Positions 24,670-42,199 of a stretch of 63,377 bases of DNA are shown here, piece by piece. Every line of letters starts with the position of its first letter. Within the stretch, counting starts at the first letter, position 1. Source of the DNA: Gemmatimonadales bacterium (GTDB lineage: Bacteria > Gemmatimonadota > Gemmatimonadetes > Gemmatimonadales > GWC2-71-9); the NCBI GenBank assembly GCA_036395695.1, contig DASWDA010000028.1, positions 1 through 63,377 on the forward strand. Reading direction: 5' to 3'. Both the position numbers and the translations under genes were made by a program. Under the pieces are notes generated by a model. That model worked only from the letters and a program-made list of their open reading frames with translations, searched no databases and was not told the DNA's origin.

Positions 24670-24671
24670 CG

Positions 24672-26615: not shown

Positions 26616-26628
26616 TTAAGGGAGCGAC

Positions 26629-27246
26629 ATGGAAGACGTCCGGGATCTAAAGGCGCTGCAGCTCGACGCGCTCAGAGAAGTCGCCAACATCGGCGCGGGC
26701 CATGCGGCGACGGCGCTGTCGCAGCTCACGCACCGGCGCATCATGATCTCGGTGCCGGAGATCAACATTGCCCGGCTCGAAGACGTGCCGGGGCTGATCG
26801 GCGATCCGCAGGAAGTCGTCGCCGCGGTCCTCATGCACATGCTCGGCGATTTGACGGGACGCACGCTGCTCATGTTCCCCGAGCCCGTCGGCCGGCAGCT
26901 GTGCGACATGCTGCTCAAGCGCCCCCTCGGGACGACCCAAACGTTCGAGACAATCGAGCAGTCGTGCATCAAGGAGGCGGGCAACATCCTCTCGGGCGCG
27001 TACATGAACGCGCTGTCGGAGTTCATGGGGATGCTGCTGCTGCCGTCGGTGCCGAGCCTCGTGGTGGATCTCTCGGCGGCGGTCCTCACGACGACGTACC
27101 TGAACTTCGGGCACGACCGGGACTTCGTGTTTTGCGTCGAGACCGAGTTCAATATCGATGCCCAGGACGGGCTGCGCGGCCATTTCCTGCTCCTGCCCGA
27201 CCTGGCGTCGCTCAAGGCGATTTTCGACGCCATTCGGTTGACTTGA
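26629..27246 (+). CDS. cheC: CheC-type CheY-P phosphatase
   Basis: Two D/S-x3-E-x2-N sites: DALREVAN and SCIKEAGN. Confidence 0.85.
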   Translation: MEDVRDLKALQLDALREVANIGAGHAATALSQLTHRRIMISVPEINIARLEDVPGLIGDPQEVVAAVLMHMLGDLTGRTLLMFPEPVGRQLCDMLLKRPLGTTQTFETIEQSCIKEAGNILSGAYMNALSEFMGMLLLPSVPSLVVDLSAAVLTTTYLNFGHDRDFVFCVETEFNIDAQDGLRGHFLLLPDLASLKAIFDAIRLT

Positions 27247-29942
27247 CGGTCTCAGAGCGTGACGTAGCGGTCCTGAGGTCCTTTGCCCGCCGGATCGATC
27301 CCTCCGATGCGGGCGCGCATAACAATCTCGGCGTTCTCTATTACCAAAAAGCCCTCGTCCCCGAGGCGATCGAGCAGTTCACCCGCGCCCTCGAGCTCGA
27401 CCCGCGCATGCAGGTCGCGCAGCGGAATCTCGAGATCGCCTACCACAACACCGGGTACTACGACCGCCGCGTGGCCGAGCTCCAGGAGAAGCTGCGCAGC
27501 GCGCCCGACGAGCGCGACGCGCGCTGGGAGCTGGGCCGCACGTACGCGATCATGGGCGCCTCCGAGGAAGCAGTCGCCGAATTCGAAGAGCTGCTGGCGC
27601 ACAAGCCCAAGGACGTGGCGGCGATCATCCAGCTCGGACTCGCCGAGAAGTCCCGCGGACGCCTGGAAGTGGCGACCGAGTGGTTCCTGCGGGCCGTCGA
27701 AGAAGAGCCGGACTCCTCCGTCGTCCACTTCTATCTTGGCGAGGTCTACTACAACCGCGGGCTGAACGAGCCGGCGCTGACCGCCCTCGAGCGCGCCGTC
27801 TCGCTCAATCCCGACAACGCGAACGCGCATTACCTGATGGCGTTCGTGCTGGGCGACATGGGGCGGCACCAGGACGCGCGCGCCGCGTCGAAGCGCGCCA
27901 TCCAGCTGAACCCGCCGCTGGCGCGCGCGCAGACCAACCTGTCGCTGGAGCGCTACCGCGCCGAACGCCAGTCGGCCGAGCACCGCCTGCGCGAGCACCC
28001 CGCGCCCGAGGTCGTCGAGGGGAGCGAGCTCGCGCATTACAACCTCGGCCTCGCGTTCCGGCAGAAGGGCTACTACGCCGAGGCGCTGCGCGAGTACCGC
28101 CTCGCGATCGACCGCGGCGAGGATCGCAGGCTGGTGCGCCAGGCGATGGCGGAAGTCCATCTCCTCAAGCGCGACTTCACCGATGCGCTCGAGCTGTACG
28201 AGTCGCTGATCCATGAGATCCCCGACTCGCCCAAGCTCTGGAACGAGCGCGGCGTCGTGTTGCATCAGGCGGGCCGGACGGCGGACGCGCTGACGTCCTA
28301 CCGTCAGGCGACGGAGGTCGATCCCCGCTACGCGCTCGCGTGGAACAACATCGGCGTCGTGCTCGCGCATCAGGCCGATACCGAAGATGCGATCGAGGGA
28401 TTTCGGAAAGCCTTGCAGCTTTCGCCGGCGTTCGTCGGCGCCCGCCTCAACCTCGCGCTGCTCCTGACCCATCTGCGCCGCTTCCAGCTCGCGCTCGAAG
28501 CGTATCGCCAGGTGCTGGCGGAACAGCCGGGCTCCGCGCCGGCGTGGAACGGCGTGGGGCTCGTGCTCGTCGAGCTGAAGCGCTTCCCCGACGCCCGGAA
28601 CGCCTTCGTCCGGGCCGTCGAGGCTGATCCGCAGAACGCGGGCGCCCACTACAACCTCAGTTTCACGCTCTCGAACCTCGGCGACTACGACGGCGCGCTG
28701 CGCGCGACCAAGCGCGCGCTCGAGCTGGACCCGTATTACGTGTCGCAGAAGTTCGCGCTGGCGATCGATCTGCAGTATGAGACGGTCGCGATCGGCATCG
28801 TGCCCGAGATCTCGGCCGACGTCGCGGCCGAGAGCCTGGGCGGCGACTTCGCGTTCGACCAGCGGCTGCTCGACAACATCTTCCAGGAGCTGGAGCCGCC
28901 CGCGGGCGCGGCCCAGGCCGCGCCCGCCGGCCTGGCCAAGCGGGCGGACGATCCGCTGGCCTTGGCGCGCGATTACGTGAGCAAGGGAATGATGGACCTC
29001 GCCGTGGCGGAAGCGATGCGCGCCGTGCAGCGCGGCGCGGACCGGGGCCAGGCCGCCACGCTGATCGGCGACAGCTATGCCCGCCGCGGCCTGCACGGGG
29101 AGGCGCTGGAGCGCTACCGCGAGGCGCGCACGCTCGATGCCGCCAACGCTCCGGCCGCGCTCGGCGAGGTGAAGAGCCTGCTCGCCGTGCACCGCTCCGC
29201 CGAAGCGCTGCCGCTCGCCGAAGCGCTGGTCGCCCAGGCGCCCGAAGACGTCGAGGTGCTCGTCGCCGCCGCGAAGGCGCGCGCGGCGACGGGCGACGCG
29301 GCCAGCGCGCTGACGGCGCTGCGGCAGGCGCAGACCCGCGCGCCGAACAGGGCCGATCTGCACAAGCTGCAGGGCGACATCGCCCTGAAAGTCGGCGACC
29401 GCCAGGGCGCCCGCGCGGCGTACCGTTCGGCGCTCGATCTCGATGAAGGGTTCGTGCAGGTCTGGCTCGATCTCGGGCGGCTGCACGAACAGGACGAAGA
29501 GTGGGTGGAAGCGCAGCGCGCGTACGAAGCGGCGCTCGAAGCGCTGCCGACCTTCCACGAGGCGGGGCTCGCGCACGCCGACCTGCTCCGGCGCACGGGG
29601 AGTCTGCGGACCGCCGTCGTGCGGCTCGCCGAGATGCTGGAGCAGGATCCTTACGACATGGACGCGCTGCTCCTGCTCGGTCGCACGCTGCTCGACGACA
29701 AGCGCAGCGTCGAGGCGCTCGAGGCGTTCCGGCGCGCGCTGAAATTCGACCCCGAGCACACCGGTGCACTGTTCTACCTGGGCGTGACGCTCGCGAAGCT
29801 GCAGCGCTACACCGAAGCGGTGGCCGCGTGGGACCGCGTGACGCGCATCGATCCGGGCGGGCCGTTCGCGCAACGCGCGCGGATGCACGCGCGGACCGCC
29901 GTCGACCTGCAGCACATCTTCGCCACCTCGGACGCGGCCTAG
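27243..29942 (+). CDS. large TPR-repeat protein (~899 aa)
   Basis: Repeated A-x-x-Y-x-x-A-L-x-L-x-P TPR units throughout (NLGVLYYQ..AIEQFTRALELDP and similar). Start set at TTG 27243, overlapping the cheC stop. The upstream part of track ORF 26901..29942 overlaps cheC out of frame. Confidence 0.7.
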   Translation: MTVSERDVAVLRSFARRIDPSDAGAHNNLGVLYYQKALVPEAIEQFTRALELDPRMQVAQRNLEIAYHNTGYYDRRVAELQEKLRSAPDERDARWELGRTYAIMGASEEAVAEFEELLAHKPKDVAAIIQLGLAEKSRGRLEVATEWFLRAVEEEPDSSVVHFYLGEVYYNRGLNEPALTALERAVSLNPDNANAHYLMAFVLGDMGRHQDARAASKRAIQLNPPLARAQTNLSLERYRAERQSAEHRLREHPAPEVVEGSELAHYNLGLAFRQKGYYAEALREYRLAIDRGEDRRLVRQAMAEVHLLKRDFTDALELYESLIHEIPDSPKLWNERGVVLHQAGRTADALTSYRQATEVDPRYALAWNNIGVVLAHQADTEDAIEGFRKALQLSPAFVGARLNLALLLTHLRRFQLALEAYRQVLAEQPGSAPAWNGVGLVLVELKRFPDARNAFVRAVEADPQNAGAHYNLSFTLSNLGDYDGALRATKRALELDPYYVSQKFALAIDLQYETVAIGIVPEISADVAAESLGGDFAFDQRLLDNIFQELEPPAGAAQAAPAGLAKRADDPLALARDYVSKGMMDLAVAEAMRAVQRGADRGQAATLIGDSYARRGLHGEALERYREARTLDAANAPAALGEVKSLLAVHRSAEALPLAEALVAQAPEDVEVLVAAAKARAATGDAASALTALRQAQTRAPNRADLHKLQGDIALKVGDRQGARAAYRSALDLDEGFVQVWLDLGRLHEQDEEWVEAQRAYEAALEALPTFHEAGLAHADLLRRTGSLRTAVVRLAEMLEQDPYDMDALLLLGRTLLDDKRSVEALEAFRRALKFDPEHTGALFYLGVTLAKLQRYTEAVAAWDRVTRIDPGGPFAQRARMHARTAVDLQHIFATSDAA

Positions 29943-29945
29943 CGT

Positions 29946-31094
29946 ATGGCGATCGAAGGACCGCTCCGCGAGCTCGGGATCCACGACGTCTTCCAGCTGC
30001 TCGACTTGAGCCGGAAGACGGGCGCGTTGCGGGTCACCTCCGAGCTGCGCCACAACGAGGGCAAGATCTACTTCGATAACGGCGTCGTGGTGTCGGCGGA
30101 GATTCGCAGCAACCCGCACCCGCTCGGTGCGCTGCTGCTGCGCACCGGCAAAATCGCCGAGGCCGATCTCGAGCGGGCGCGTGACATGCAGCAGCGGCAG
30201 GGCGACAAGCGCCGCCTCGGCGAGATCCTCGTGGCGCTCGGCGTCATCACCCAGCGCGAGGTCGAGCGCCAGATCCACTTCCAGATCGAGGAAGTCGTCT
30301 TCGAGGTCATGAGCTGGAACGAAGGCTACTTCTCGTTTGCGGAAGAGGCCGAGAGCAAGGTGCCCACCGAGGTCACGGTCCGCATCCCGGTGGAAGCGCT
30401 CTTGATGGAAGGCGCGCGCCGCATCGATGAATGGTCCCGGATCGAGAACCGCATTCCCCACGTCGGCGTCGTGCCCTCGCTCGCGCCGCCGCCCGAAGGC
30501 GGCGGCGGCGAGCTGGATCTCCTGCCGCCCGAGTGGGAAGTGCTCGCGCTCATCGACGGCGACCGCTCCGTGCGGGGCCTCGCGACCGAGCTGGGGCGGT
30601 CCGATTTCGAAGTCGCCAAGACGCTGTTCGGCCTCGAAAGCGCCGGCGTGATCGTCCTCGTGGATCCCGGGACGGCCAAGCGCGGACGGCCGGGCGCCGG
30701 CAGTGACCTCGCGGAGCTCGTCGCAGAGCTGATCGCGAAGGCTGAGACTGCCCTGCACGCCAAGGACCTCGACGCCGCCCGCGCCGCCGCCGAGCAAGCC
30801 GGCAGTATGCAGCCGCACGACGCGACGATTCATCTCCTGCTCGGCCGCATCCACCTGGCGCAGGGGCACGCGTCCGCCGCTGCCGAGGAGCTGCGGCGCG
30901 CGCTGCGGCTCGATCCGTTGCTCGCCGCGACGCATCGCTACCTGGGATTCGCCCTCGTCGCGATGGGCCGGTTCGGCGAAGCCGTGCAAAGCTGGGACCA
31001 GTGGGAGCGCCTGGCGCGCACGACGGAAGAGGAGGCGTACAAACCGGACGTGCAGCGCGCCCGCGAAGCCGCGCGAGTGTTCAGCAATGGCTGA
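29946..31094 (+). CDS. PATAN (DUF4388) domain protein with helical insert and C-terminal TPR
   Basis: N-terminal GPLRELGIHDVFQLLDLSRKTGALRV, typical of DUF4388/PATAN. Tandem RLGxxLV..Q helical motifs, then TPR-like repeats. Confidence 0.7.
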   Translation: MAIEGPLRELGIHDVFQLLDLSRKTGALRVTSELRHNEGKIYFDNGVVVSAEIRSNPHPLGALLLRTGKIAEADLERARDMQQRQGDKRRLGEILVALGVITQREVERQIHFQIEEVVFEVMSWNEGYFSFAEEAESKVPTEVTVRIPVEALLMEGARRIDEWSRIENRIPHVGVVPSLAPPPEGGGGELDLLPPEWEVLALIDGDRSVRGLATELGRSDFEVAKTLFGLESAGVIVLVDPGTAKRGRPGAGSDLAELVAELIAKAETALHAKDLDAARAAAEQAGSMQPHDATIHLLLGRIHLAQGHASAAAEELRRALRLDPLLAATHRYLGFALVAMGRFGEAVQSWDQWERLARTTEEEAYKPDVQRAREAARVFSNG

Positions 31095-31911
31095 CGAGAT
31101 CCGCGCGCTCTCGGCGCAGCTCGCGCAGGATCCACAGAGCCTCGTGTTCCTGCGGCTGGGCGAAGCCTTGCGCCGCAAGGGACAGCTCGATTCCGCGACC
31201 CGAGTCGCGATGAACGGGCTCGAGCGGCATCCGCATCTCGCCGACGCGCACGACTTGTACGCGCGGATCCTGACCGACAAGCACGATTACGCGCGCGCGT
31301 TCGACGAGTGGGACATGGCCGTCCGGATCGCGCCCAACCATACCGGCGCCCTGAAGGGACTCGCGTTTCTCTATTTCAAGGTCGGCGATATCGCCCAGGC
31401 CGAAACCCATCTCGAGCAGGCGCGCAAGGTCGAGCCCGACGATCCGACCATCGACCAGGCGTTTGAGATGATCCGCGGCGGGGCACATGCGCCGCCCGCC
31501 GCCGCCCCTTCGCCGCCCCCCGCCGCCCCAGCGCCGGCAGCGGGTGCGCTCGATGAAACGCGCGTTTTCGCGGGATTAGAGGGCGCCAACGAAGGCCTCC
31601 TGCTCATCGACGGCGCGGGACGTGTCCTGGGTGGGTCGCTCCGCGATCGATCGGGCTCGGATGTCACCGACAGCGTCGCCGCCTATCTTGCCGGCGTCTC
31701 GCAGGAAGCGGCCCGGACCGCGAAGCTGCTGGGGCTGGGAGCCTGGAACGGTTTGTCGGCGGAAGGACAGCACGGCAACGTGCACCTGGCGCATCCGACG
31801 CCCGAAGCGCTGCTCCTCGTCGTCCGCGAGCGCGGGACGCCGCTCGGCCGCCTCGCGATTCTCGCGCAGCGGGCGACGGCGCTGGCGCGCCGCTGGCTGG
31901 AGCGGCAATGA
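31087..31911 (+). CDS. TPR - Pro/Ala linker - Roadblock/LC7 fusion protein
   Basis: N-terminal TPR units, an APSPPPAAPAPAAG linker, and a C-terminal Roadblock-like block GLLLIDGAGRVLGGSL...ALLLVVRERGTPLGRL. Confidence 0.68.
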   Translation: MADEIRALSAQLAQDPQSLVFLRLGEALRRKGQLDSATRVAMNGLERHPHLADAHDLYARILTDKHDYARAFDEWDMAVRIAPNHTGALKGLAFLYFKVGDIAQAETHLEQARKVEPDDPTIDQAFEMIRGGAHAPPAAAPSPPPAAPAPAAGALDETRVFAGLEGANEGLLLIDGAGRVLGGSLRDRSGSDVTDSVAAYLAGVSQEAARTAKLLGLGAWNGLSAEGQHGNVHLAHPTPEALLLVVRERGTPLGRLAILAQRATALARRWLERQ

Positions 31912-32261
31912 CGAAGGGCGGACCACTCGATCTGATCACCCGCGTGCGAGGCGTCCGCGGCGCGATGCTGGTCTCGGCGGAGGACGGCCTCGTCGTGGCC
32001 GAGCAGCTCATGGAGGGGATCAAGGGCGGCGCCGTGGCCGCGCTCGCCGCGAGCCTCGCCGGCCGCCTGCGCCGGGCGATGGAAGCGGCGGGGACCGGGA
32101 CGAGCGTCTTTTGGCACCTGCAGGCGGAGCAGGGCGCGCTGCTGGTCGTTCCCGGTGGGCACAATGCCGGTGGCATCCTGGTCGTCGCGGTTGCGGAGCC
32201 CGATGTGAACATCGGCCTGGTGCGCCTCGAGCTACTGCGAGCGGCGGAGACGATGGTATGA
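31908..32261 (+). CDS. Roadblock/LC7 domain protein (MglB-like)
   Basis: 117 aa. VRGVRGAMLVSAEDGLVVAE...GALLVVP...ILVVAV pattern. ATG overlaps the previous stop. Confidence 0.75.
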   Translation: MTKGGPLDLITRVRGVRGAMLVSAEDGLVVAEQLMEGIKGGAVAALAASLAGRLRRAMEAAGTGTSVFWHLQAEQGALLVVPGGHNAGGILVVAVAEPDVNIGLVRLELLRAAETMV

Positions 32262-32734
32262 GTCAACAGACCCGCGCCGTCGAAAACTGGACGCTGCAAC
32301 CGCTCACCGACTTCGTGCGGGAAGCATCGGCGCGCCTGGTCCTGGTGCTCACGCCGTCGGGGCAGGTGCTGGCGCAATCGGGATTCTCGCGCGCCGTCGA
32401 TGTCATGTCGTCCGCGGCGCTGGCGGCGGCGATCGTCGCCTCCACCGGCGAGCTGGCGCGCCAGCTGCGGCAGCCGCCCTTCGCGGCGCTCAGCCATCAG
32501 GGGCCCAAGACCGGTTTCTTCCTGGCCACCTTCGCGACCGATCGCGGCACGCTGGCGGTGCTCGCCGTCTACGATATGGACGTTTCATCGCTCGGCTTGG
32601 TTCAGTTATTCTATGAGCAGCTTGCGGCGGACTTGAAGACGGCGAGTCCGAAGGGGGCGGTCCCCAAGCAGGTGCTCGCGGCCGACTTCGAGCGCGAGTT
32701 GACGGACAGCCTCAACACGCTGTTTGGGAGATAG
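32258..32734 (+). CDS. Roadblock/LC7-like protein with C-terminal extension
   Basis: [18 protein letters not shown]...GFFLATF...LAVLAVYD pattern. ATG 32258 overlaps the previous stop (ATGA). Confidence 0.62.
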
Positions 32735-32736
32735 CG

Positions 32737-33339
32737 GTGTCCCTGGTCAACTTCACGACCCGCGAGATCACGTGCAAAATCGTCTACTACGGACCTGGGC
32801 GGTCCGGAAAGACGACCAATCTCCATTACATTTACGGCCGCGTGCCGGAAACTCGGCGCGGGCGCATGGTGTCGCTCGCTACGCAGACCGACCGCACCCT
32901 GTTCTTCGACTTCCTGCCGATCGATCTGGGCCAGATCTCCGGATTCTCGACGCGGTTTCAGCTCTACACCGTCCCGGGCCAGGTCTATTACAACGCCACG
33001 CGGCGACTCGTGCTCCAGGGCGCGGACGGCGTGGTGTTCGTCGGGGACAGTCAAGCCCGGCAGCTCGATGAGAATGTCGAAAGTCTGCAGAACCTCCAGA
33101 GCAATCTGCTCGAGCACGGCATCGATGTGCGCACCATGCCGCTGGTGATGCAATACAACAAGCAGGACCTGCCCGCCGAGCTGATCCTGCGGCAGGAGGA
33201 CCTCGACGACGCGCTCAACTTCCGGAGCGTGCCGAGCTTCGCGGCCGACGCGCTGCACGGCAGAGGGGTGTTCGAGACCCTCAAGTCGATCTCGGAGCTC
33301 GTGCTCAAGAGGCTGGCGGCGGGAACCCCCGCGACATGA
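32737..33339 (+). CDS. mglA: MglA-family Ras-like small GTPase
   Basis: Collinear with Myxococcus MglA as I recall it: [15 protein letters not shown] (P-loop), [11 protein letters not shown] (intrinsic Arg), YTVPGQ (catalytic Gln), NKQD. Confidence 0.93.
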
Positions 33340-35288
33340 CCAGCACGCTCAATCCCCGCTTCACGTTCGACACGTTCGTGGTCGGCGCGGCGAACCGCCT
33401 GGCCGTCACCGCCGGGCGTACCGTCGCGGAGAATCCGGGCTCGGCCTACAACCCGCTCTTCATCTATAGTGGCTCGGGGTTGGGCAAGACGCACGTGCTG
33501 ATGGCCATCGGGCACGCCGCCAAGGTCATCGCGTCGCAGCTGAACATCGAGTACCTGACGCTCGACGAGTACGTCGAGGCGTTCCACGCCGCGATCGCGG
33601 CGGGGCAGGGCGACGCTTTCCGGCGCCGGTTCCAGAACGTCGATGTGTTGCTCGTCGACGACGTCCAGTTCCTCACCAATCGCAAGGAGATGCAGACCGA
33701 GCTGCTTCGCCTGACCGAGGCGCTGCAGCAGTCAGGGCACCAGATCGTGCTCGCGAGCGATCGCCCGCCGGCCGAGATCGCGGACCTGGACGAGCGTCTC
33801 ATCTCGCGCTTTTCCGGCGGGCTCGTCGTCGATATGGGCATCCCCGACTACGAAACACGCGTCGCCATTCTGCGCCGCAAGGCCGAGGAGCGTGGCACGA
33901 AGTTCCAGCCGGGAGTCCTCGAGACCGTCGCGAAAATCGAGTACCCGAACGTGCGCGAGTTGATGGGCGCGCTCAATCGCCTGATCGCCTTCCAGGCGGT
34001 GAACGACACGCCGATCAATGCCGATGCCGCGAGCAAGGTGTTGGGTATTCCTACCGGCGCTTCACCGACCGCCGCCTCATCTACCGCCGCTTCATCTACC
34101 GCCGTCTCACCAGATGAGTTTTCCCAGTTCCTGACCGATGTCACCGTCACGGTCGGCAAAGCCGTCGAGGCGTGGCGTGCGCGGGTGACCGAGGCGGTGA
34201 TGCGCTGGGAGGGCGAGGGCTACCGGACGGGCCGCCTCGAAAAGCTCCTCGATCAGGAGACGCCGGCCGCGGTGGACGAAGTGATCGCGTCGTACGTGCG
34301 GGACGTGGACCGGCTCAAGGCGCTCGAGGCGGAAGTGGCGGTGCTCGATCCCCAGGCCGCGGGTGAGAAAGTCTTCCGCGATCCCGACCACATGGAAGCC
34401 GCCGAGGCGGCCGCCGCGAAGGTTCGGGACGGCGCGGCCCCGCCGCCGGCTCCGTCGGGCGCATTTCCGCTCGACGCGTACCTTGCCGGGCCGTCCAACG
34501 AGGTGGCCCTGAACGCCGCGCGCGATTGTGTCGCGAAGCCCGGGACGAAATACAATCCCCTCGTGATCGTCGGCCGCAGCGGGCTCGGCAAGACGCACCT
34601 GCTCAACGCGATCGGCCTCGAGCTCGCGAAAAAGAAGAACGCGGTGGTCGCCTGCCTGTCGACCCAGCAGTTCGTCGACGAGCTGATTGCCGCCATTGAC
34701 GGCAACCGGGTGGACTGGTGGCGCGCGCGCTATCGGCGCGCGACGGCCCTGCTGCTCGACGACATCCATCTGCTCTCCGGCAAGGAGCGCACGCAGGAAG
34801 AGCTGTTCAACCTTTTCAATCAGCTGGTCGACGCCGACCGGCAGCTCATCTTCACGGCGCCCGCGCATCCGAACACGCTCGAGGGCCTCGAGGAGCGCAT
34901 CGTGTCGCGGCTCGAAGGCGGGCTCGTGACGGAGATCGCGGAGCCGGACAAGGAGCTGCGCCGGAGCATGCTCGAGCGCCTGCTCACCCACCAGCACGTG
35001 GCGCTCGAGCCGGCGCTGCTCGACTACCTGGCGGACCGGCCCATCGATTCCGTCCGCAACCTGACCGGCGTGGTTCAGCGCGTGGTCGAGGCCGCCGCCG
35101 CGCAGGACGCGCCCGTGACGGCGGGTCTGGCGCGCGATGTGCTGGAGGGAGCGCCTCCGCCGCGCCGCACGGCGGGGCTGCGCACCAGCGGCATCGTCGT
35201 GTCGAGCGCCGGCGGCGTGCGCAGCCGGGAGAAGATGGTCTGGGACTGGCCCACCGCTGCTGATCGCGTCATCGAGGATCTGCGCTGA
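33336..35288 (+). CDS. tandem double DnaA-type AAA+ ATPase lacking DnaA domains I and IV
   Basis: Two copies of the DnaA domain-III motif set. Copy 1: GSGLGKTHV / LLVDDVQFL / SRFSGGL / [11 protein letters not shown]. Copy 2: [10 protein letters not shown] / LLLDDIHLL / SRLEGGL / [11 protein letters not shown]. No C-terminal HTH. The ATG overlaps the mglA stop. Confidence 0.8.
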
Positions 35289-36904
35289 TGGCCATCAAAG
35301 GCTCGCTCAAGGAAGCGTCGCTCCCCGACGTGCTGCAGCTCCTGGCGCTGGGGCAGAAAACCGGCTGCCTGTCGATCGCCGACCGCTCCAACTTCGGCTA
35401 CATCTATTTCGACCGGGGCCGGATTTCCTACGCGTCGATCGTGAACCGCCGCGATCGGCTCGGCGACATCCTCGTGAAGCACGAGAAGATCACGCAGGAC
35501 CAGCTGGACGCCGCGATCCACCGCCAGGCGAAAGAGCGCGACAAGAAGCTGGGCGAGATTCTCGTGCTCCAGAGCGTGCTCACGCAGCAGGAGCTCGAGC
35601 GCTACATGCGCATGCAGATCGAGGAGTCGGTCTACTATCTCTTCACGTGGACGCAGGGCACGTTCAACTTCGAAGCCGACGTCCGCCCGGAGCAGCAGGA
35701 CTTCCTGGTCTCGATCAACCCGGAGTCCCTGCTGCTCGAGGGCGCGCGGCGCGTGGACGAGTGGGGCCTGATCGAGAAAAAGATCCCGTCGTTCGATCTG
35801 ATCTTCCTCGTGGACCGCGACCGCCTGGCCATCAGCGACGCAAAGCTGACGGAAATGCAGGATCGCCTGCTGCCGCTGCTCGACGGCTCGCGCGACGTCA
35901 ATCAGGTCATCGAAGATTCCGGCCTGGGGGAATTCGAGGTCGGGAAGGCGCTCTACGGCCTCGTCACCGCCGGCTTCCTGCATCGCGCCGGCCGCACCGC
36001 CAGCGCTGAAGACGTGAAGATGACCGACGCGCGGGTGGAGGAGCACCGCAACCTCGGCATCGCCTTCTACAAGACGGGCATGCTCGACGAAGCGGCGCGC
36101 GAATTTCGCCGCGTCGCCGAGCTGCGCGCGACGGATGCCAACGCGCACTTCTTCATCGGCCTGGTCGCGCTGAAGCAGGCGCGCTGGCGCGAGGCAATGG
36201 AAGCGCTGCGGCTCGCCGCCGAAAAAGGCGGGTCACGGCCCGCCGTGCTCCACAATCTGGGGCTCGCCTACGAGCAGGTCGGCCGGCTGGAGGATGCGGA
36301 AGCGGCCTACTCCGAGGCGGCCACGCGCGCGCGCACCGATCCACGGGTGTACGTGGGATGGGGCATCGTCGCGCTGAAGCAGGGCGACCATGCCAGCGCC
36401 GCCGGGCGGCTCGACCGCGCCAAGGAGCTGTTCGCCGACAAGGTGCCCCCGATCTGGTTCTGGGCGCGCGCACTCGTCGCGGCGTCGGCGGGCGATTTCG
36501 AGACGGCGGAACAGGTGGCCGTGCAGGCCGTCGAAAAGCATCCGCACAACGGCGTGTTGCGCAACAATCTCGCCGTGCTGCACGAGCTGGCGGGTGCGCT
36601 GCCACAAGCCGAGGAGCTGGCGCGCGCCGCGCTCCAGGACGAGCCGTCCCTGCCGCAGCTGTCCAAGAATCTCGGCGACCTGGCCTACCGCGGCTCGCGC
36701 TACGATGAAGCCTGGGCGCTGTATCAGCGCGCGATCGAGCTGTCGCCCGAGCTGGGCGATGACGTCTACTTCAAGCTCGGCAACATCGCGTACAAGCGAA
36801 ACGAGCGCGACCAGGCGAGCGAGCTGTGGCGGCGCGCGCTCGAGCTGAATCCCAAACACGAGCTCGTCAAGGCCAATCTGGACACCCTGAGCAGTTTGTC
36901 GTGA
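35288..36904 (+). CDS. PATAN (DUF4388) domain protein with helical insert and long C-terminal TPR region
   Basis: GSLKEASLPDVLQLLALGQKTGCLSI N-terminus. Paralogous to 29946..31094 over the first ~230 aa, then multiple TPR units. Confidence 0.7.
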   Translation: MAIKGSLKEASLPDVLQLLALGQKTGCLSIADRSNFGYIYFDRGRISYASIVNRRDRLGDILVKHEKITQDQLDAAIHRQAKERDKKLGEILVLQSVLTQQELERYMRMQIEESVYYLFTWTQGTFNFEADVRPEQQDFLVSINPESLLLEGARRVDEWGLIEKKIPSFDLIFLVDRDRLAISDAKLTEMQDRLLPLLDGSRDVNQVIEDSGLGEFEVGKALYGLVTAGFLHRAGRTASAEDVKMTDARVEEHRNLGIAFYKTGMLDEAAREFRRVAELRATDANAHFFIGLVALKQARWREAMEALRLAAEKGGSRPAVLHNLGLAYEQVGRLEDAEAAYSEAATRARTDPRVYVGWGIVALKQGDHASAAGRLDRAKELFADKVPPIWFWARALVAASAGDFETAEQVAVQAVEKHPHNGVLRNNLAVLHELAGALPQAEELARAALQDEPSLPQLSKNLGDLAYRGSRYDEAWALYQRAIELSPELGDDVYFKLGNIAYKRNERDQASELWRRALELNPKHELVKANLDTLSSLS

Positions 36905-37680
36905 GCAAAGCTCCTCTGGAGCGAGGTTTCGAAGCGCTGACGGAAAAGATCTCACGCGAGCGGGGAGTCAGCTGCGGGTCGTACAAGGATAAATGCCTGA
37001 AGCGCCGCATCGCGGTGCGCATGCGCGCCCGCGGCGCCCATACCTACGAAGACTACGGCAAGATTCTCGATCACGACGCGCACGAGTACCAGGAGCTCCT
37101 CGACGCGCTCACGATCAACGTCACCAAGTTCTTCCGCAACGCCGAAACCTGGACCGCGCTCCGGCCCCATCTGGAGGCGCTCGCCAGGAGACGTCCCACA
37201 CTGCGGGTGTGGTCGGCGGGATGCGCCTCGGGCGAGGAGCCGTACACGATCGCCGTGCTCATGACAGAGCTGGGCGCCCAGGGTGTCATCGACGCGACCG
37301 ACGTCGATCGATTGAGCCTCGAGCGCACCCGGCAGGCGCATTATCCGGACGCGGCGTTCACCGAGATGCCGTCGCACCTCAGGCGCCGCTATTTCGAGGG
37401 CGGCCGGCCGGTGCACGAGGTCCGCGAGCTCGTGCGCGTCCAAAGCCACGATTTGATGCGGGAGCGTCCCCCGCATCCGCCGTACGACCTGATCGTGTGC
37501 CGCAACGTCGTGATTTACTTCGAGCGCCAGGCCCAGGAGCGGCTGTTTCAGACCTTTGTGGATGCGCTGGCGCCCGGGGGCGTACTCCTGCTCGGAAAAG
37601 TCGAAACCCTGTTCGGCCCCGCGCGCGAGCGCCTCACTCTCGTCGATCCGCGCGAGCGGATTTACGTACGGCCCGGGTGA
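36901..37680 (+). CDS. cheR: chemotaxis protein methyltransferase CheR
   Basis: INVTKFFRN, VWSAGCASGEEPY and IVCRNVVIYF blocks. GTG 36901 overlaps the upstream stop (GTGA). Confidence 0.88.
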   Translation: MSKAPLERGFEALTEKISRERGVSCGSYKDKCLKRRIAVRMRARGAHTYEDYGKILDHDAHEYQELLDALTINVTKFFRNAETWTALRPHLEALARRRPTLRVWSAGCASGEEPYTIAVLMTELGAQGVIDATDVDRLSLERTRQAHYPDAAFTEMPSHLRRRYFEGGRPVHEVRELVRVQSHDLMRERPPHPPYDLIVCRNVVIYFERQAQERLFQTFVDALAPGGVLLLGKVETLFGPARERLTLVDPRERIYVRPG

Positions 37681-38159
37681 AAGAAGTCATCGTCAAAGTC
37701 GCCGATTGGGCGGCCGAGCGTGGCGATGGCGTCCTGGTCACCCTCGGACTCGGTTCCTGCGTCGCGATCATGCTGCACGATCCGCAAACCAGAACGGGCG
37801 CGATGGCGCACGTCCTGCTGCCGTCGACCAGCCTCGTGCGCGATCTCACGAACCGCGCCAAGTTCCCGGAAACCGCCGTGCCGCTGCTCATCGAGCGGCT
37901 CAAGGCGCTCGGGGCGGACCCGCGGCGACTCGTGGCAAAGCTGGCTGGCGGCGCCCGCATGTTCAGCCAGCTCGTCACCCCCGGCACCATCCAGATGGGC
38001 GAGCGCAACGTCCTGGCCTCGCGCACCGCGCTCCGCGCCGCGGCCATCCCGGTCATTCGTGAGGCCGTGGGCGGCGACCGCGGCCGCAGCGTGCGGTTTT
38101 ACGTGACGGATGGCCGGGTGGAGATCCGGTCGGTGGGAGTCGATGCCGCCGTCATCTGA
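37677..38159 (+). CDS. cheD: chemoreceptor glutamine deamidase CheD
   Basis: [14 protein letters not shown] (catalytic Cys), MAHVLLP and GERNV blocks. GTG 37677 overlaps the cheR stop. Confidence 0.85.
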
Positions 38160-39234
38160 CGCGTCCGGCCGCCCGAGCGTCGTCGTCGCCGACGACAGCG
38201 CGCTGATGCGCCGAGTGCTGGTCGATGTCCTCGGCGCCGAGTTTCGCGTCGTCGCCACGGCGCGCGACGGTCTCGACGCGATCAGCAAAGTGCACGAGCA
38301 CAGGCCCGACGTCGTCACGCTCGATCTCGAGATGCCGCGGCTCGATGGGCTGGGCGCCATCGGCTACATCATGTCCGAGTCGCCGCGGCCGATCGTCGTC
38401 GTCAGCGCGCACGCCGGGCCGGGCACGCAGTCCGCGATTCGCGCCCTCGAGCTGGGCGCGGTGGAAATCGTCGCCAAACCGCCCCCCGAAGTCTTCGGTC
38501 ATCCGCGCGCCGCGCTCGAGGCGCTCGCGCCGGAGCTCATCGGCGCCGTGCGCCGGGCGCTCGCGGCGGACCTCTCGCACGTCAAGGTGTTGGCGCGCCC
38601 GCCGGCGCCGGTGGTTCACCCGCCCGAGCACGCGCTGCGCGGGCGCGCCGTGCTCGCCGTGGGCGTCGCCGCCTCGACCGGTGGTCCGCGCGCGCTCGCC
38701 GACGTCGTCCCGCGCCTGCCGACGGGGCGCGGCGCCGCGATCTTCATCGTGCAGCACATGCCGCCGAAGTTCACGCGCAGTCTCGCCGAGCGGCTCGACT
38801 CCATGAGCCCGTTGCGCGTCGTCGAGGCGGCCGACGGCACCCCGATTGTGGCTGACACGGCGTACGTGGCCCCGGGCGATTATCATATGCGGGTGCGTTC
38901 TGCTCCCGACGGACCTGTCATCGCGCTCGACCAATCCGCGCCCCTGTGGGGCGTCCGTCCCGCGGCCGATCCCTTGTTCCGCTCCATCGCCGAGGTCTAT
39001 GGCGCCCGCGGCATTGGGGTCGTGCTCACGGGCATGGGGCGCGACGGGGCCAGCGGCCTGCGCGCGATGCATGATGCCGGCGGCACCGGGCTCGCCCAGG
39101 ATCGGGAAACGGCGGTGATTCCAGGAATGCCGGTGGCGGCGGTGCAGGCGGGCGGCGTCGATGCGGTCCTCCCGCTCGGTCAGATTGCCGACCGCGTCGC
39201 AGCCGAGTTGCTGCGGAGACGGCAGAAATCATGA
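38143..39234 (+). CDS. cheB: protein-glutamate methylesterase/deamidase CheB (REC + esterase)
   Basis: Receiver ([20 protein letters not shown]) and esterase ([22 protein letters not shown]) blocks. The track start at 38110 is also possible. Confidence 0.9.
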
Positions 39235-39240
39235 CTCGAC

Positions 39241-39313
39241 AGGCTAAAGCCTGCGCTCGGCAATGCGGTGTCCTTAAGGACAATGTTGTGCCGAGCCCAC
39301 CCTTGAGGGTGGG
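39241..39313 (+). promoter_or_regulatory. structured leader: three consecutive hairpins in the only sizeable gap of the che cluster
   Basis: AGGC-TAAA-GCCT (39241-39252). GCTCGGCA...TGCCGAGC (39255-39296) with an inner TGTCC-TTAA-GGACA stem. CCCACCC-TTGA-GGGTGGG (39296-39313), ending 6 nt before ATG 39320. Confidence 0.4.
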
Positions 39314-39319
39314 AAAACC

Positions 39320-39739
39320 ATGAAGGGTTATTTGCTCGTGCGTTCCGAGGGGAAATCGTACGGCCTGCCAGTCGCCCGCGTGCTCGAGGTGGGTGACGCC
39401 ACGGAAGTGCTTGCCATTCCGCGCAATCTGCCCGCGGTGCGGGGCCTGACGCCGCTGCGCGGACGGCTCGTCCCGCTGATTCATCTGGGTGCGCTGCTCA
39501 CGGGGAGCGAAGCACCACCCGCCGGCGGCCACGCGGTGCGCACGGTCGTCCTCGTCGAGCTCGGCGCGAGCGGGCGGCAGGTCGCCTTCGAAGTCGATGA
39601 CGCCGATGCGGTCGTGCGCGAGCAGCCGCTGCCCGTGCCGCGCGGCCAGGCGCTGCCGTGGGCGGCCGGGGTGGCGGAACGGGAGGGGGGATTGGTGCCG
39701 ATCCTCGACCTCGACGCGCTCGGGGATCGCATTACGTGA
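39320..39739 (+). CDS. cheW: CheW-domain protein
   Basis: YLLVRSEGKSYGLPVARVLEV and VRGLTPLRGRLVPLIHL blocks. Confidence 0.8.
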   Translation: MKGYLLVRSEGKSYGLPVARVLEVGDATEVLAIPRNLPAVRGLTPLRGRLVPLIHLGALLTGSEAPPAGGHAVRTVVLVELGASGRQVAFEVDDADAVVREQPLPVPRGQALPWAAGVAEREGGLVPILDLDALGDRIT

Positions 39740-40212
39740 CGACCACGACGTTGAGCTCGGGCGGCGACGATGTGCAGCTGGTCACGTTCAAAGTGGGCGG
39801 CCAGGATTTCGCGTTCAACATTTTTCAGGTCGAGCGCATCCTGCGGTATGAAGCGCCCGCGCCGTTGCCGAAGGCGCCCGAGTTTCTCGAGGGCGTGCTG
39901 CAGTATCAGGGCGGTGCCGTGCCGCTCATCGATCTGCGCAAGCGGCTCGGCGCGGAGGCGCCGCTGCGCGAGGACACGCGGACCGTCATCCTCGAGTTCG
40001 ATGGCGGCAAGATCGGCATGATTGTCGACACCGTGACCGAGGTGATGCAGGTATCCGCGCAGGCGGTGACGCCGCCGCCGGGCATCGTCCGCGGACTGGC
40101 CGCGGAGTACATCTCCGGCCTCCTCGTGCAGAACGGACGCACGATCGTCGTCCTGAACACGAACAAGCTGCTGAACTCGAAAGAAAAACTGGCTCTGCAG
40201 GGAGCCACGTGA
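39736..40212 (+). CDS. cheW: CheW-domain protein
   Basis: LVTFKVGGQDFAFNIFQVERIL, FLEGVLQYQGGAVPLIDL and IGMIVDTVTEV blocks. GTG 39736 overlaps the upstream stop. Confidence 0.85.
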   Translation: MTTTTLSSGGDDVQLVTFKVGGQDFAFNIFQVERILRYEAPAPLPKAPEFLEGVLQYQGGAVPLIDLRKRLGAEAPLREDTRTVILEFDGGKIGMIVDTVTEVMQVSAQAVTPPPGIVRGLAAEYISGLLVQNGRTIVVLNTNKLLNSKEKLALQGAT

Positions 40213-41081
40213 TGGCTGAAACACCGGTCGCGGCGCTGCGCCGGGAATACGATGCCATCGCCCGGCAGCTCGAGGGGGGGGGCCCCTCGGGCAACGCCGA
40301 GCGCGAAGCCGCCAAGCGGGAGATCATCGCCTTTTTCAAGAAGGTCGACGGGATGCTGGGCGAGATGACCCAGTTGAAGGACGACATCCGCCAACTCGTC
40401 GATCGCTACAAGCAGCTGGCCGCCGACACCAAGCAGGCCGCGGCGCCCGAGTTCACCGGGCAGCGACCCGTGCTGCATGCCGATCATATCGGCGCGACCA
40501 CGTTCATCGAAAAGGGATGGAGTCTCATCTCGTTGGGCGACCACGCCGGGGCGATTCAAGCGCTCACCAAGGCACTCCAGCTCTCGCCCGGGGAGACGCA
40601 GGCGGAATCGCTGCTCGGCTGGGCACAGATGCTGCACGAGGACTACGACGATGCCCTCGGCACCTTCCAGAAAGTGCTGATGAAGGAGCCCGCCAATTCT
40701 CTCGCGCGCATCAACGTCGGCTACATCTGCCTGAAGAAGCGGATCTTTGGCGAAGCGATCGAGCATCTCTCGAAGGCGATCCGGCTGGACAACGACAAGA
40801 AGGCGACGCTGTACGCCCATTTCTATCTCGGGCTCGTCTACCTGCAGCGCGAGATGTTCGAGGACGCGGAGACGTTCTTCGAGAAGACCATCAAGCTCGG
40901 CCCGAATCTGATCGAAGCCTATTACGAGCTGGGACGCGCGCACTGGTTCGCCGGCGACCAGGACAAGGCCAAGTCCACGTGGGGGGACGGCTTCAAGGCG
41001 AACAAGTTCAATCCCTGGGGCAAGAAGTGTCAGGAGATGCTGGAGCTTGTCGCCAAGGGCGAGGAGCCGCCGCGAGAATAG
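40209..41081 (+). CDS. coiled-coil + TPR protein
   Basis: N-terminal coiled-coil segment, then TPR units (AIQALTKALQLSP, ALGTFQKVLMKEP, AIEHLSKAIRLD, ETFFEKTIKLGP). Confidence 0.7.
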   Translation: MMAETPVAALRREYDAIARQLEGGGPSGNAEREAAKREIIAFFKKVDGMLGEMTQLKDDIRQLVDRYKQLAADTKQAAAPEFTGQRPVLHADHIGATTFIEKGWSLISLGDHAGAIQALTKALQLSPGETQAESLLGWAQMLHEDYDDALGTFQKVLMKEPANSLARINVGYICLKKRIFGEAIEHLSKAIRLDNDKKATLYAHFYLGLVYLQREMFEDAETFFEKTIKLGPNLIEAYYELGRAHWFAGDQDKAKSTWGDGFKANKFNPWGKKCQEMLELVAKGEEPPRE

Positions 41082-41977
41082 CGCTGCTTGCCCTGCTGCT
41101 GCAGGGTCCGGTTGCACCGTCGCATCCCCCCGTTGCCATCACCGTTGGGCGCGTGACCGCGATTGCCTGGCCGACGCAGGAGGGGCTCGCCACGTCGCTC
41201 GCGGAGGTCGCCGATCATGCGCGCGACTTCCCCGGCATCGGCGCCATGCCCGACCGTCCCATCCGGCTGATCCTCGCGCCGACGCGCGCGCAGTACGACT
41301 CGCTCACGCGCGGCCGGCTGCCGCTCTGGAGCGAAGGCGCCGCGTTCCCGGATGCCGGGACGATCGTGCTGTTGACCGTCCAACCGTCCGCCCGTCCGGC
41401 CGTCCTCCGGCACGAGCTTGGCCACCTCGCGCTGCGCTGGCACGTCGGTCGCTACGTCCCCCTCTGGTTTGAAGAAGGTTATGCCGCGGTCGCGGCCCAG
41501 GAGTGGGACCGGCTCGACGCGTTGCGCCTGAACTGGCAGCTCGCGCGCGGCGTGCGCATGGATCTCGACGACGTCGATCGGGCGTTGCGGGGCGCGCGGG
41601 GCGACGCGGAGACGGGCTATGCGCTCGCGACGACCGCCGTGCTCCTGCTGGAACGCTGGGGCGGGGATCGCGGACTCGCGCCGCTGCTCGCCAACCTGCG
41701 CTCGGCCGAGTCGTTCGATGCCGCGCTGCGCACGACCTACCACGTCACAGAAGGCGATTTCGAGCTGCGCTGGCAGCGCGACGTCGGCTCACGCTACGGC
41801 TGGCTGTCGTGGCTGGCGGCGCTTGGATTCTTCTGGCTGGCGATCGGCGCGCTGCTCGTCGCGCTGATCGGGCTGCGGCGCAGACGCGACCGGCGCAAGC
41901 GCGCCGCACTGGAGGCGGAGGGCGCCGCCGAGGCGGATGAAAGCCAACTGCTTGACGATGTTGGGATTAACGAATAG
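41027..41977 (+). CDS. peptidase-MA-like zinc metalloprotease with C-terminal TM anchor
   Basis: HELGH zinc motif followed by WFEEGYA. C-terminal TM WLSWLAALGFFWLAIGALLVALIGL, then a basic stretch. Start uncertain: GTG 41027 is the nearest ATG/GTG/TTG-type start upstream of the signal-like IALLALLLQG segment. Confidence 0.55.
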   Translation: MSGDAGACRQGRGAAARIALLALLLQGPVAPSHPPVAITVGRVTAIAWPTQEGLATSLAEVADHARDFPGIGAMPDRPIRLILAPTRAQYDSLTRGRLPLWSEGAAFPDAGTIVLLTVQPSARPAVLRHELGHLALRWHVGRYVPLWFEEGYAAVAAQEWDRLDALRLNWQLARGVRMDLDDVDRALRGARGDAETGYALATTAVLLLERWGGDRGLAPLLANLRSAESFDAALRTTYHVTEGDFELRWQRDVGSRYGWLSWLAALGFFWLAIGALLVALIGLRRRRDRRKRAALEAEGAAEADESQLLDDVGINE

Positions 41978-41990
41978 ACTCCAGCCCCGA

Positions 41991-42176
41991 ATGCCGGACC
42001 AAACACTTGCCCGTTCGCGCCTCCGCTTCGGACCCAAGAACTACATCGTTCTTGGTGGCGCGGCCGTGTCCCTGGTGCTCGGTTACTGGCTGTTGTCGAA
42101 GGGATCCACAACGCTCGCGCCGGTGCTGCTCGTCCTGGGCTACTGCGTTTTGTTTCCAGTAGGCCTGGCCCTTTAG
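41991..42176 (+). CDS. small two-TM membrane protein (DUF3098-like)
   Basis: 61 aa from ATG 41991. FGPKNYIVLGGAAVSLVLGYWLL and a second hydrophobic helix. Confidence 0.5.
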   Translation: MPDQTLARSRLRFGPKNYIVLGGAAVSLVLGYWLLSKGSTTLAPVLLVLGYCVLFPVGLAL

Positions 42177-42199
42177 CACCTCCGCCCCCCCAATGGCAC

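Follow-up and report, generated by a model that had tools for sequence, protein, structure and literature searches.

The question raised by the locus described here is whether chemosensory (Che) genes and the genes of an MglA-type GTPase switch, written in one string, encode a single signaling system. Links between chemosensory pathways and MglA are known mainly from Myxococcus, where the parts are scattered and the links are hard to find. In a Gemmatimonadales bacterium (GenBank assembly GCA_036395695.1, contig DASWDA010000028.1), such genes were found next to each other in a stretch of 63,377 nt with a GC content of about 67%, which was analyzed as a whole and is herein referred to as the window. 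The conserved string covers positions 23787–41081 and consists of 18 genes (17 kb), all on the plus strand and mostly overlapping, from the first cheW gene to a gene for a tetratricopeptide repeat (TPR) protein, herein named TPR3. The phylum Gemmatimonadota has inherited this string vertically. As to its function, our preferred reading, to which we assign a probability of about 0.45, is that phosphorylated CheY (CheY-P) and cyclic di-GMP (c-di-GMP) feed an MglA/MglB switch that is built on TPR, Roadblock, PATAN, and AAA+ proteins and controls a polar organelle.

The center of the string is formed by seven plus-strand genes. The gene for the first PATAN(DUF4388)-TPR protein, herein PATAN1 (29946–31094; DUF4388 4.8e-33, 114.2 bits with a cut-off of 25; TPR repeats), is followed by a gene for an N-terminal TPR region fused to a divergent C-terminal Roadblock domain (31087–31911; TPR_19 3e-11, Robl_LC7 1e-4), a gene for a small Roadblock/LC7 protein of 117 aa (31908–32261; Robl_LC7 1e-9, 38.4 bits with a cut-off of 23; PDB 7f8m 1.1e-6), and a gene for an MglB-like Roadblock protein of 158 aa (32258–32734; Robl_LC7 25.6 bits with the same cut-off of 23; MglB 6h5b_B 5.1e-9; NCBIfam MglB 2e-7). 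These are followed by the gene for MglA, a Ras-like GTPase of the group 1 type (32737–33339; Arf-like Pfam match), the gene for a 650-aa ATPase with two AAA+ modules of the DnaA domain III type, herein referred to as the tandem ATPase (33336–35288; Bac_DnaA 7.8e-103, 342 bits, in two stretches), and the gene for PATAN2, a second PATAN(DUF4388)-TPR protein with a longer TPR array (35288–36904; DUF4388 1.5e-38, 132 bits with a cut-off of 25). At the first three junctions, the genes overlap by 8, 4, and 4 nt; mglA is separated by 2 nt from the gene before it, and the last two junctions are overlaps of 4 and 1 nt. The open reading frames (ORFs) and Pfam matches bear out this unit as it was given, with its domains and junctions, in a first-pass annotation made from the sequence alone. 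The only less secure assignment is the Roadblock domain of the fusion protein, which scored 22.4 bits with Robl_LC7, just below the Pfam cut-off of 23. This domain is backed by a match to the NCBIfam MglB model (3.8e-5) and by profile–profile comparison with the other two Roadblock genes (P ~1e-3 by hhalign). The symmetry that had been ascribed to the core amounts to two paralogues flanking a block.

On both sides, the seven genes are bounded by che genes, and the Pfam matches agree with the flanks named in the first-pass annotation. The left flank comprises the first of three cheW genes (23787–24296; CheW 8.5e-22), cheY for a single-domain response regulator (24307–24669; Response_reg 4e-31), cheA (24672–26615), cheC for a predicted CheY-P phosphatase (26629–27246; CheC 1.1e-21), and the gene for a large cytoplasmic TPR protein of 895 aa without a hydrophobic segment (27243–29942; TPR families up to 2.4e-87). 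The right flank comprises the genes for the methyltransferase CheR (36901–37680; CheR 1.9e-44), for CheD (37677–38159; CheD 5.2e-27), and for the methylesterase CheB with its receiver domain (38110–39234, start codon uncertain; CheB_methylest 2.3e-63, Response_reg 7.5e-20). Beyond cheB, two more cheW genes (39320–39739 and about 39658–40212; CheW 5.5e-18 and 2.1e-33) and a 290-aa TPR gene were found, which were missing from the earlier list. The latter gene, encoding the cytoplasmic protein TPR3 (40209–41081; TPR_2 3.7e-26 and synteny), is the last signaling gene.

The overlaps and domains also agree with the earlier description of a compact, translationally coupled string that joins Che, MglA/MglB, PATAN-TPR, and double DnaA-like ATPase genes. 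The GTG start of cheR at 36901 overlaps the PATAN2 gene by 4 nt, and the stop of cheC is overlapped by 4 nt by the TTG start of the large TPR gene. Overlaps of 4 nt were also found at the cheR/cheD junction and between the third cheW gene and the TPR3 gene. At the left end, the stop of rluD is overlapped by 8 nt by the ATG of the first cheW gene, and the coupling thus extends past the seven genes. In a consensus scan of positions 23000–42900, 13 terminator-like sites were found, with 9.8 ± 3.9 expected and hence no excess. Promoter-like sites were not in excess either; the sole (sigma-70-like) one of this region is located at 41952–41980, in the gap 5' of a gene for a secreted TPR protein. None of the products from cheW through TPR3 has a hydrophobic segment.

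The distribution of the string was analyzed by scanning GTDB, with each species represented by one genome. The family-specific mid-domain of the tandem ATPase was used as the query, by which ordinary dnaA genes were avoided, and 343 loci were found. Gene order was mapped by tblastn in the best 80 of these 343 loci and scored over the part that each locus spans. All 80 belong to Gemmatimonadales, and the order cheW-cheY-cheA-cheC-TPR-PATAN-TPR/Roadblock-Roadblock-MglB-MglA-tandem ATPase-PATAN-cheR-cheD-cheB-cheW-cheW-TPR-peptidase-TPR(-rsmH) was kept in 80/80, which argues that the arrangement is not due to chance. The gene for the large TPR protein was syntenic in every locus reaching its position. 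Among the more divergent Gemmatimonadales loci, CheY was 93–95% identical, MglA 85–91%, and the neighboring proteins 45–80%. The same order was found in four deeper relatives (L081, L083, L085, and L086), where the tandem ATPase is only 33–59% identical to that of the window, so that the gene order is a property of far more than one genome. In L081, L083, and L085, which extend far enough, the locus lies again between rluD and rsmH-ftsL-ftsI.

The distribution of the tandem ATPase itself agrees with that of the string. Thousands of close metagenomic relatives were found, and those named by source all belong to Gemmatimonadales or Gemmatimonadota. An exhaustive search of representatives of clusters at 50% identity gave full-length members down to 33% identity. 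Two further searches with distant members gave no named relative outside Gemmatimonadota.

Three of the deep relatives are natural variants of the string. L081 has no counterparts of the two cheW genes that follow cheB. In L085, cheW, cheA, cheR, cheD, and cheB are absent; cheY, cheC, the large TPR gene, the seven central genes, and the TPR3 gene are retained. The most reduced form, L088 (9564–14310), contains only genes for an MglB-like Roadblock protein (34% identical to the MglB-like protein of the window), a tandem ATPase of 897 aa, a PATAN-TPR protein, and a Peptidase_MA-like protein; mglA is absent. The PATAN2 gene always overlaps that of the tandem ATPase and is translationally coupled to it. 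Judged from these gene contents, the MglB-like protein, the tandem ATPase, and PATAN2 form the tightest set, the kinase and adaptation genes are separable, and CheY and CheC are to be counted with the block. That cheY and cheC are still present in the locus that has lost cheA, cheW, cheR, cheD, and cheB argues that CheY-P is an input to the block. The seven genes had been proposed as the unit; as an evolutionary unit they do not stand alone, since cheY, cheC, the large TPR gene, and the TPR3 gene travel with them and since the variants L085 and L088 exist. These two loci may be regarded as natural "deletion mutants" and offer a ready-made dissection of the system.

The GTPase at the center of the string was compared with characterized MglA proteins. 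MglA of the window matched M. xanthus MglA (PDB 5ymx) over its full length with an E-value of 1.5e-72 and the Thermus protein (3t12) with 6e-69 in phmmer searches. Its P-loop, GPGRSGKTT, aligns with GPGLCGKTT of M. xanthus MglA, and the segments TDRTLFFDF and LYTVPGQV, containing the intrinsic arginine and the TxxGQ motif, are identical between the two proteins. The corresponding M. xanthus residues are R53, the arginine finger, T78, which stands in place of an Asp of Ras, and the catalytic Q82 (PMC3000849, PMC3199381). Across the loci, MglA was 74–99% identical. The gene for the MglB-like Roadblock protein ends directly 5' of mglA. By its alignments, the fifth gene of the center is a genuine group 1 MglA. 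The 158-aa Roadblock protein is classified as MglB-type by predicted fold and family, with a putative role as GTPase-activating protein, and its orthologue is the one Roadblock protein retained in the reduced locus L088. For the 117-aa Roadblock protein, the label MglC was considered and not adopted; the literature on its match, PDB 7f8m, was uninformative.

Both PATAN proteins meet the gathering score of PF14332 and are paralogues of each other (33% identity, 1e-49). Their C-terminal parts consist of TPR repeats and gave no Response_reg match, so that they are not of the PatA type, in which PATAN is joined to a receiver. Because PATAN is fused here to TPR and not to a receiver, phosphorylation must come via the separate CheY. 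A helical insertion within the PATAN domain was found to be a tandem MshEN-type motif, located at residues 59–113 of PATAN1 (30120–30284) and 57–110 of PATAN2 (35456–35617). MshEN binds c-di-GMP in pilus ATPases, and a relaxed form of its tandem 24-residue motif was described (Wang et al., 2016; PMC5013675). With the NCBIfam model NF053729 for an MshE-related c-di-GMP-binding motif (cut-off 38), PATAN1 scored 42.1 bits and PATAN2 48.9 bits. A profile of the insert made from orthologues matched Thermus PilF (5.9e-14), PilB (8e-9), V. cholerae MshE (6e-7), and the PDB entry named "c-di-GMP binding domain of PilF" (2e-5); E-values of the MshEN matches ran from 6e-14 to 1e-4, and the only PDB match of another kind was a marginal one to a YqeY entry (0.006). 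The motif columns are near-invariant in 73 orthologues of PATAN1 and 83 of PATAN2.

Structural modeling of the insert points in the same direction. In an AlphaFold2 model of moderate quality, it forms four helices with a predicted local distance difference test (pLDDT) score of about 80–87. The best Foldseek matches of this model were c-di-GMP-bound MshE (5htl, root-mean-square deviation [rmsd] 1.2 Å) and PilF; over the c-di-GMP-bound MshE/PilF structures, the rmsd was 1.1–1.3 Å and the identity 30–33%. GATOR1/KICSTOR chains were also matched by the PATAN model in Foldseek, with a probability of ~0.15, and were discarded. The second 24-residue motif fits the relaxed motif exactly in both proteins; when the window was translated in all six frames, only 4 such matches were found, including these 2. 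The first motif departs from it at positions 10/11 and, in PATAN1, also at position 21. Both PATAN proteins are therefore described here as probable c-di-GMP sensors, on the strength of profile matches and models. No link between a PATAN insert and MshEN was found in the literature searched. For PATAN itself, a role as an output domain that binds PilB1 and PilC was described for the PatA-type regulators of Synechocystis (Han et al., bioRxiv 2021.06.11.447907), and in Myxococcus PATAN proteins are among the candidates linked to the MglA effector SgmX (PMC11580455).

The tandem ATPase was modeled by AlphaFold2 with a mean pLDDT of 82.6 and two confident AAA+ modules. The predicted layout comprises a first AAA+ module (residues 1–236), a disordered linker (239–261), a helical mid-domain (261–366), a second AAA+ module (372–604), and a disordered tail (607–650). 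The best fold match was domain III of B. subtilis DnaA, with a template modeling (TM) score of 0.94 by Foldseek; matches to p97/Cdc48 were discarded, as they reflected only a topology with two AAA+ modules and had an rmsd above 25 Å. The two modules are paralogues (34% identity, 7e-45). In the protein of the window, each module has a Walker A motif GxGKTH, a Walker B motif DD, box VII arginines, and a sensor-II arginine. In each of 29 diverse members of the family, both modules carry Walker A, Walker B, and the sensor-II arginine without change; the box VII arginines are found in 16–24 of the 29. At E ≤ 0.01, the protein matched only PF00308, twice, and generic AAA models, with no match to DnaA domain I (DnaA_N) or domain IV (Bac_DnaA_C); genuine DnaA proteins used as controls do show both. 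The tandem ATPase is accordingly a protein with two predicted intact ATP sites and without a DNA-binding domain.

Module 1 is 45–48% identical to domain III of B. subtilis DnaA and 59% identical to P0261, a DnaA fragment with domain I, with which it groups in a neighbor-joining tree. These comparisons show that, in sequence, module 1 closely copies domain III of a genuine DnaA. Module 2 alone matched the Hda model TIGR03420, with 182.1 bits and below the cut-off of 194.8; on reading of the N-terminal sequence, no Hda clamp-binding motif was seen. With the DnaA equivalog model TIGR00362, the tandem protein scored 509 bits, well above the cut-off of 343.9. Many of its relatives are named "chromosomal replication initiator protein DnaA" by JGI. 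From this score and these names it follows that automated annotation mislabels a second "DnaA" in these genomes.

In the disordered tail, a C-terminal peptide of the form E-K-x-V-W-x-W-P...D-R-x-I-E-E (residues 632–650, positions 35230–35288) is conserved down to 33% overall identity. All 29 members share residues E632, K633, W638, R644, and E647; P639 is present in 28/29. The presence of an invariant peptide in a disordered tail, together with five cytoplasmic TPR-bearing proteins of the operon, suggests docking on TPR. Conservation and model thus suggest the peptide as a candidate docking motif for a TPR domain of the operon.

Other fusions with DnaA-type ATPase modules were found outside the string. 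Two giant proteins, P0209 (1876 aa) and P0210 (1990 aa), consist of MshEN, a DnaA ATPase, a Glu/Ala-rich and apparently coiled-coil stretch of ~1100 aa, and a second DnaA ATPase; P0257 and P0471 are fusions of TPR with a DnaA ATPase. The genes for P0210 and P0209, with further MshEN-DnaA paralogues, lie between pilD and pilB in two unrelated assemblies (L087, 4309–15923; L090, 2681–13179), and one of these clusters continues with pilT-pilC-pilS-pilT/U-pilR. In these clusters, DnaA-type ATPase modules and MshEN domains are thus combined with type IV pilus genes outside the string described here. In a neighbor-joining tree, crude and without support values, the two modules of the MshEN-DnaA giants are sisters and group with ordinary DnaA, and their orthology to the tandem ATPase was rejected on this basis. 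The MshEN-DnaA proteins look like a pilus-linked family of DnaA-derived ATPases that is independent of the Gemmatimonadota one. A further protein, P0197 (673 aa), has two DnaA ATPase modules and DnaA domain IV; its modules are also sisters in the tree, and it represents a third kind of tandem DnaA.

The first-pass annotation had framed the locus by the Frz pathway of Myxococcus, and this framing did not hold. CheA contains only Hpt, P2, H-kinase_dim, HATPase_c, and CheW domains, which is the classical five-domain layout, and lacks the C-terminal receiver that is fused to CheA in FrzE. Neither an FrzCD-type receptor (MCPsignal) nor a dual-receiver FrzZ was found among the ORFs scanned over the window. 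The closest relative of CheY was T. maritima CheY (1tmy, 2e-51), and CheC matched the NCBIfam model of Thermotogales CheC with 4.3e-47, below the equivalog cut-off. The gene set of Thermotoga/Bacillus systems is complete, with CheA, CheW, CheY, CheC, CheD, CheR, and CheB, the class being judged from this gene set and the matches of CheY and CheC. In gene content and domain layout, the Che module is Thermotoga/Bacillus-like and not Frz-like. CheY is also the best-conserved protein of the string, with 93–100% identity in Gemmatimonadales and 70–90% in the deep relatives.

In the mechanism that we propose for the string, CheA would phosphorylate CheY, and CheC would reset it. CheY-P would act on the assembly of Roadblock, TPR, and PATAN proteins and thereby switch MglA from one nucleotide state (GTP or GDP) to the other. 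By analogy, this step would parallel the action of phosphorylated Frz response regulators on MglB/RomR in Myxococcus, where the polarity module is an established target of these regulators (PMC3441718, PMC10329633). Binding of c-di-GMP by the PATAN proteins would provide a second input. The tandem ATPase would spend ATP to assemble, remodel, or time the complex, and would probably dock via its invariant C-terminal peptide on a TPR domain. As its output, the switch would place a polar motility organelle, whose genes lie elsewhere, or set its activity. As its likeliest target, we suggest type IV pili, reached via PATAN and TPR effectors that act on PilB/PilC, with a polar flagellum as the alternative; as a specific output, type IV pili are nonetheless somewhat doubtful. 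The MglA and MglB proteins of Myxococcus are described as setting front–rear polarity and acting on pili via the TPR protein SgmX (PMC7519303, PMC7668184). Regarding the tandem ATPase, the founding of a non-replicative class of DnaA-derived ATPases, serving with PATAN-TPR and Roadblock proteins as the ATP-driven core of a polarity or pilus-control machine, may be put forward as a tentative idea whose probability is rather less than even. If it were true, the operon would integrate phosphorylation, GTP, ATP, and c-di-GMP in one complex, and motility control would have taken up DnaA ATPase modules on at least two occasions, in Gemmatimonadota and in the MshEN-DnaA coiled-coil giants of the pilD-pilB clusters.

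Several observations weigh against the proposed mechanism. Among the ORFs scanned over the 63-kb window, no genes for methyl-accepting chemotaxis proteins (MCPs), flagella, pili, or gliding were found, as the first-pass annotation had reported for flagellar, type IV pilus, and gliding genes. With receptor, pilus, and flagellar genes not in these 63 kb, the output of the string is purely inferred, and the earlier description of a "self-contained" device does not apply, as both the receptor and the output machinery are outside the window. The loss of kinase and adaptation genes in L085 and of MglA in L088 indicates that the parts are not obligatorily one machine. The deviation of the first MshEN motif at positions 10/11 leaves c-di-GMP binding not assured, and the MshEN-DnaA giants, which appear to be an independent recruitment, provide a parallel case only. 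Additionally, with module 1 being 59% identical to a fragment of genuine DnaA, a link to replication is conceivable, and the flagella-type Che proteins could have a conventional job, given that Gemmatimonas bears a polar flagellum (PMC9862903).

This last point leads to the first of the other explanations, that two independent systems share one inherited string: che genes for flagellar chemotaxis and a separate polarity module, co-transcribed for historical or dosage reasons and with no signal from CheY to MglA. Che systems of the Thermotoga/Bacillus type normally drive flagella, and the close match of CheY to T. maritima CheY, the Thermotogales-type CheC, the presence of CheD, the classical layout of a CheA without a receiver, and the polar flagellum of Gemmatimonas all fit this explanation. 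So does the survival of the inner block after the loss of the kinase and adaptation genes in L085, of the extra cheW genes in L081, and of all che genes in L088. However, cheY and cheC are still attached to the block in L085, and the che genes are split around it, with 4-nt overlaps at the cheC/large TPR gene and PATAN2/cheR junctions. This split is kept in every spanning locus of the 80 and in L081 and L083, despite protein divergence of 40–60%. We regard two independent systems as fairly unlikely, though clearly worth keeping in view. Less likely again is a role of the block as a regulator of the cell cycle, of the division site, or of polar (budding) growth, working with the division and cell wall (dcw) cluster and with motility not as its main output. 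Budding was given as the mode of division in the description of Gemmatimonas, and PatA of cyanobacteria localizes to division sites. The string stands directly 5' of rsmH-ftsL-ftsI-murE...ftsA-ftsZ in the window, in L081, L083, and L085, and in several Gemmatimonadaceae loci. Between the signaling genes and rsmH, however, there are three envelope genes and a 330-nt gap that holds the only promoter-like site, and the reduced block of L088 is not followed by dcw. Adjacency to housekeeping genes may merely reflect an old, stable region of the chromosome, and the known roles of MglA, MshEN, and PATAN point to pili and motility.

In the explanation that we consider the least probable, the tandem ATPase regulates replication by co-assembling with DnaA or by inactivating it in the manner of Hda, and the operon so couples environmental and polarity signals to initiation. 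The similarity of module 1 to B. subtilis DnaA domain III and its grouping with P0261, the score of module 2 with the Hda model, although below the cut-off, and the box VII arginines in both modules of the window protein speak for such a role. It is made improbable by the absence of DnaA domains I and IV, and with them of a DNA-binding domain, by the failure to see the Hda clamp motif, and by the partial conservation of the box VII arginines in the family. The neighborhood consists wholly of signaling and scaffold proteins in every lineage, and pilus clusters elsewhere have acquired ATPases of the DnaA type. Control of an MglA/MglB switch by CheY-P and c-di-GMP is the reading that we prefer.

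Compared with the Frz and MglA-MglB(/RomR/MglC) systems of Myxococcus xanthus, the string has in common a Che-type phosphorelay with a group 1 MglA, an MglB-type Roadblock protein, and extra Roadblock paralogues. In both cases, TPR proteins are plausible MglA effectors, and a phosphorylated single-domain regulator is presumed to flip the GTPase switch. Unlike in Myxococcus, where the parts are encoded at separate loci, they are joined here in one string, CheA has no fused receiver, and CheY, CheC, and CheD are Thermotoga/Bacillus-like. No RomR/RomX-type gene was evident among the annotated products, which were not searched directly for RomR or RomX. PATAN-MshEN-TPR proteins and a tandem DnaA-like ATPase are present here and were not reported for the Myxococcus module in the literature searched.

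The description of the locus as largely uncharacterised agrees with the literature searched, in which no account of this operon was found. The embedding in che genes, the tandem DnaA-like partner, the MshEN insert in these PATAN proteins, and the phylum-wide synteny had no description in the literature searched. Part of the link is older: according to Wuichet and Sogaard-Andersen (2015; PMC4316618), the adjacency of PATAN genes to mglA/mglB was described by Makarova et al. (2006). In their own survey, Table S2 contains the entry "PATAN>MglA>-PATAN>" for G. aurantiaca T-27, which is probably this locus, the unnamed "-" gene being probably the tandem ATPase. The neighborhoods given in these two surveys use only the symbols PATAN, MglA, and MglB; the che embedding, the ATPase, the MshEN insert, and the synteny are absent there.

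The individual parts have further counterparts. In the PatA-type PixE/PixG proteins of Synechocystis phototaxis, PATAN is likewise tied to a chemotaxis-like pathway; there it is joined to a receiver, whereas here it is joined to TPR and has MglA, Roadblock, and AAA+ partners. With the MshEN domains of MshE, PilB, and Thermus PilF, the insert shares the tandem 24-residue motif and the four-helix model; in those ATPases the domain forms the N-terminus of a secretion ATPase, whereas here it is an insert inside PATAN with a degenerate first motif. Each half of the tandem ATPase resembles DnaA/Hda as a DnaA-type domain III with catalytic motifs, but the chain has two modules, a family-specific helical domain between them, a conserved C-terminal peptide, and a signaling neighborhood, and it lacks domain I, domain IV, and the clamp-binding motif. 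The string is not an actinobacterial conservon, which consists of CvnA-D (a membrane histidine kinase, a Roadblock protein, a DUF742 protein, and an MglA-like GTPase); here the kinase is a CheA and the GTPase resembles group 1 MglA, and there is no DUF742 and no membrane histidine kinase.

Chemosensory control of an MglA-type switch is as such known from Myxococcus; among the components found here, the non-replicative tandem ATPase could be new in kind. Gemmatimonadota are an abundant soil phylum, in which the candidate partners are adjacent and conserved phylum-wide. The locus provides a short list of candidate interactors, namely CheY, CheC, three Roadblock proteins, the TPR scaffolds, and the PATAN proteins. 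Two further components were not expected, namely an apparent c-di-GMP input by way of the MshEN insert and a DnaA-derived tandem ATPase that has no DNA-binding domain. Should this ATPase indeed belong to the switch, the fold of the replication initiator would have found a new use, and the second annotated "DnaA" would be explained.

The surroundings of the string are composed of housekeeping and envelope genes. Upstream of it, ileS, a DksA-type zinc-finger gene, lspA, and rluD were found. On the 3' side, the signaling genes are always followed by three envelope genes, here on the plus strand (41144–44129), assigned by Pfam, hydrophobicity, N-termini, and synteny. They encode a Peptidase_MA_2-like protein with a C-terminal membrane helix (from 41144, start approximate; Pfam and hydrophobicity), a 61-aa membrane protein with two helices (41991–42176; hydrophobicity, no NCBIfam match), and a TPR protein with a signal peptide (42309–44129; Pfam and N-terminus). 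Together they are probably a separate functional unit. The Peptidase_MA-like and secreted TPR genes are 330 nt apart, and this gap contains the 61-aa ORF, with the promoter-like site at 41952–41980 just 5' of it. A gene of 61–63 aa was found in the same place in L081 and L085.

After the envelope genes, the dcw cluster is complete from rsmH to ftsZ, without mraZ. The gene rsmH starts 67 nt after the secreted TPR gene (44129–44196), and mraZ is likewise absent in L081, L083, and L085. The adjacency to rsmH in the window and in these three loci makes the che/MglA string a fixed upstream neighbor of dcw in the phylum.

Long ORFs were also found on the minus strand, for example 27252–31280 (1342 aa), which is antisense to the TPR and PATAN genes. 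They were judged to be artefacts of high GC content, because the plus-strand genes are coherent, domain-bearing, and syntenic. With a crude filter for third-position GC, most, not all, of the plus-strand genes passed, and the ORF at 27252–31280 failed. Elsewhere in the window and unlinked to the string, a gene with a DAC domain (c-di-AMP synthase of the CdaA/DisA_N type) was found at 13628–14428, amid tilS, ftsH, and folP.

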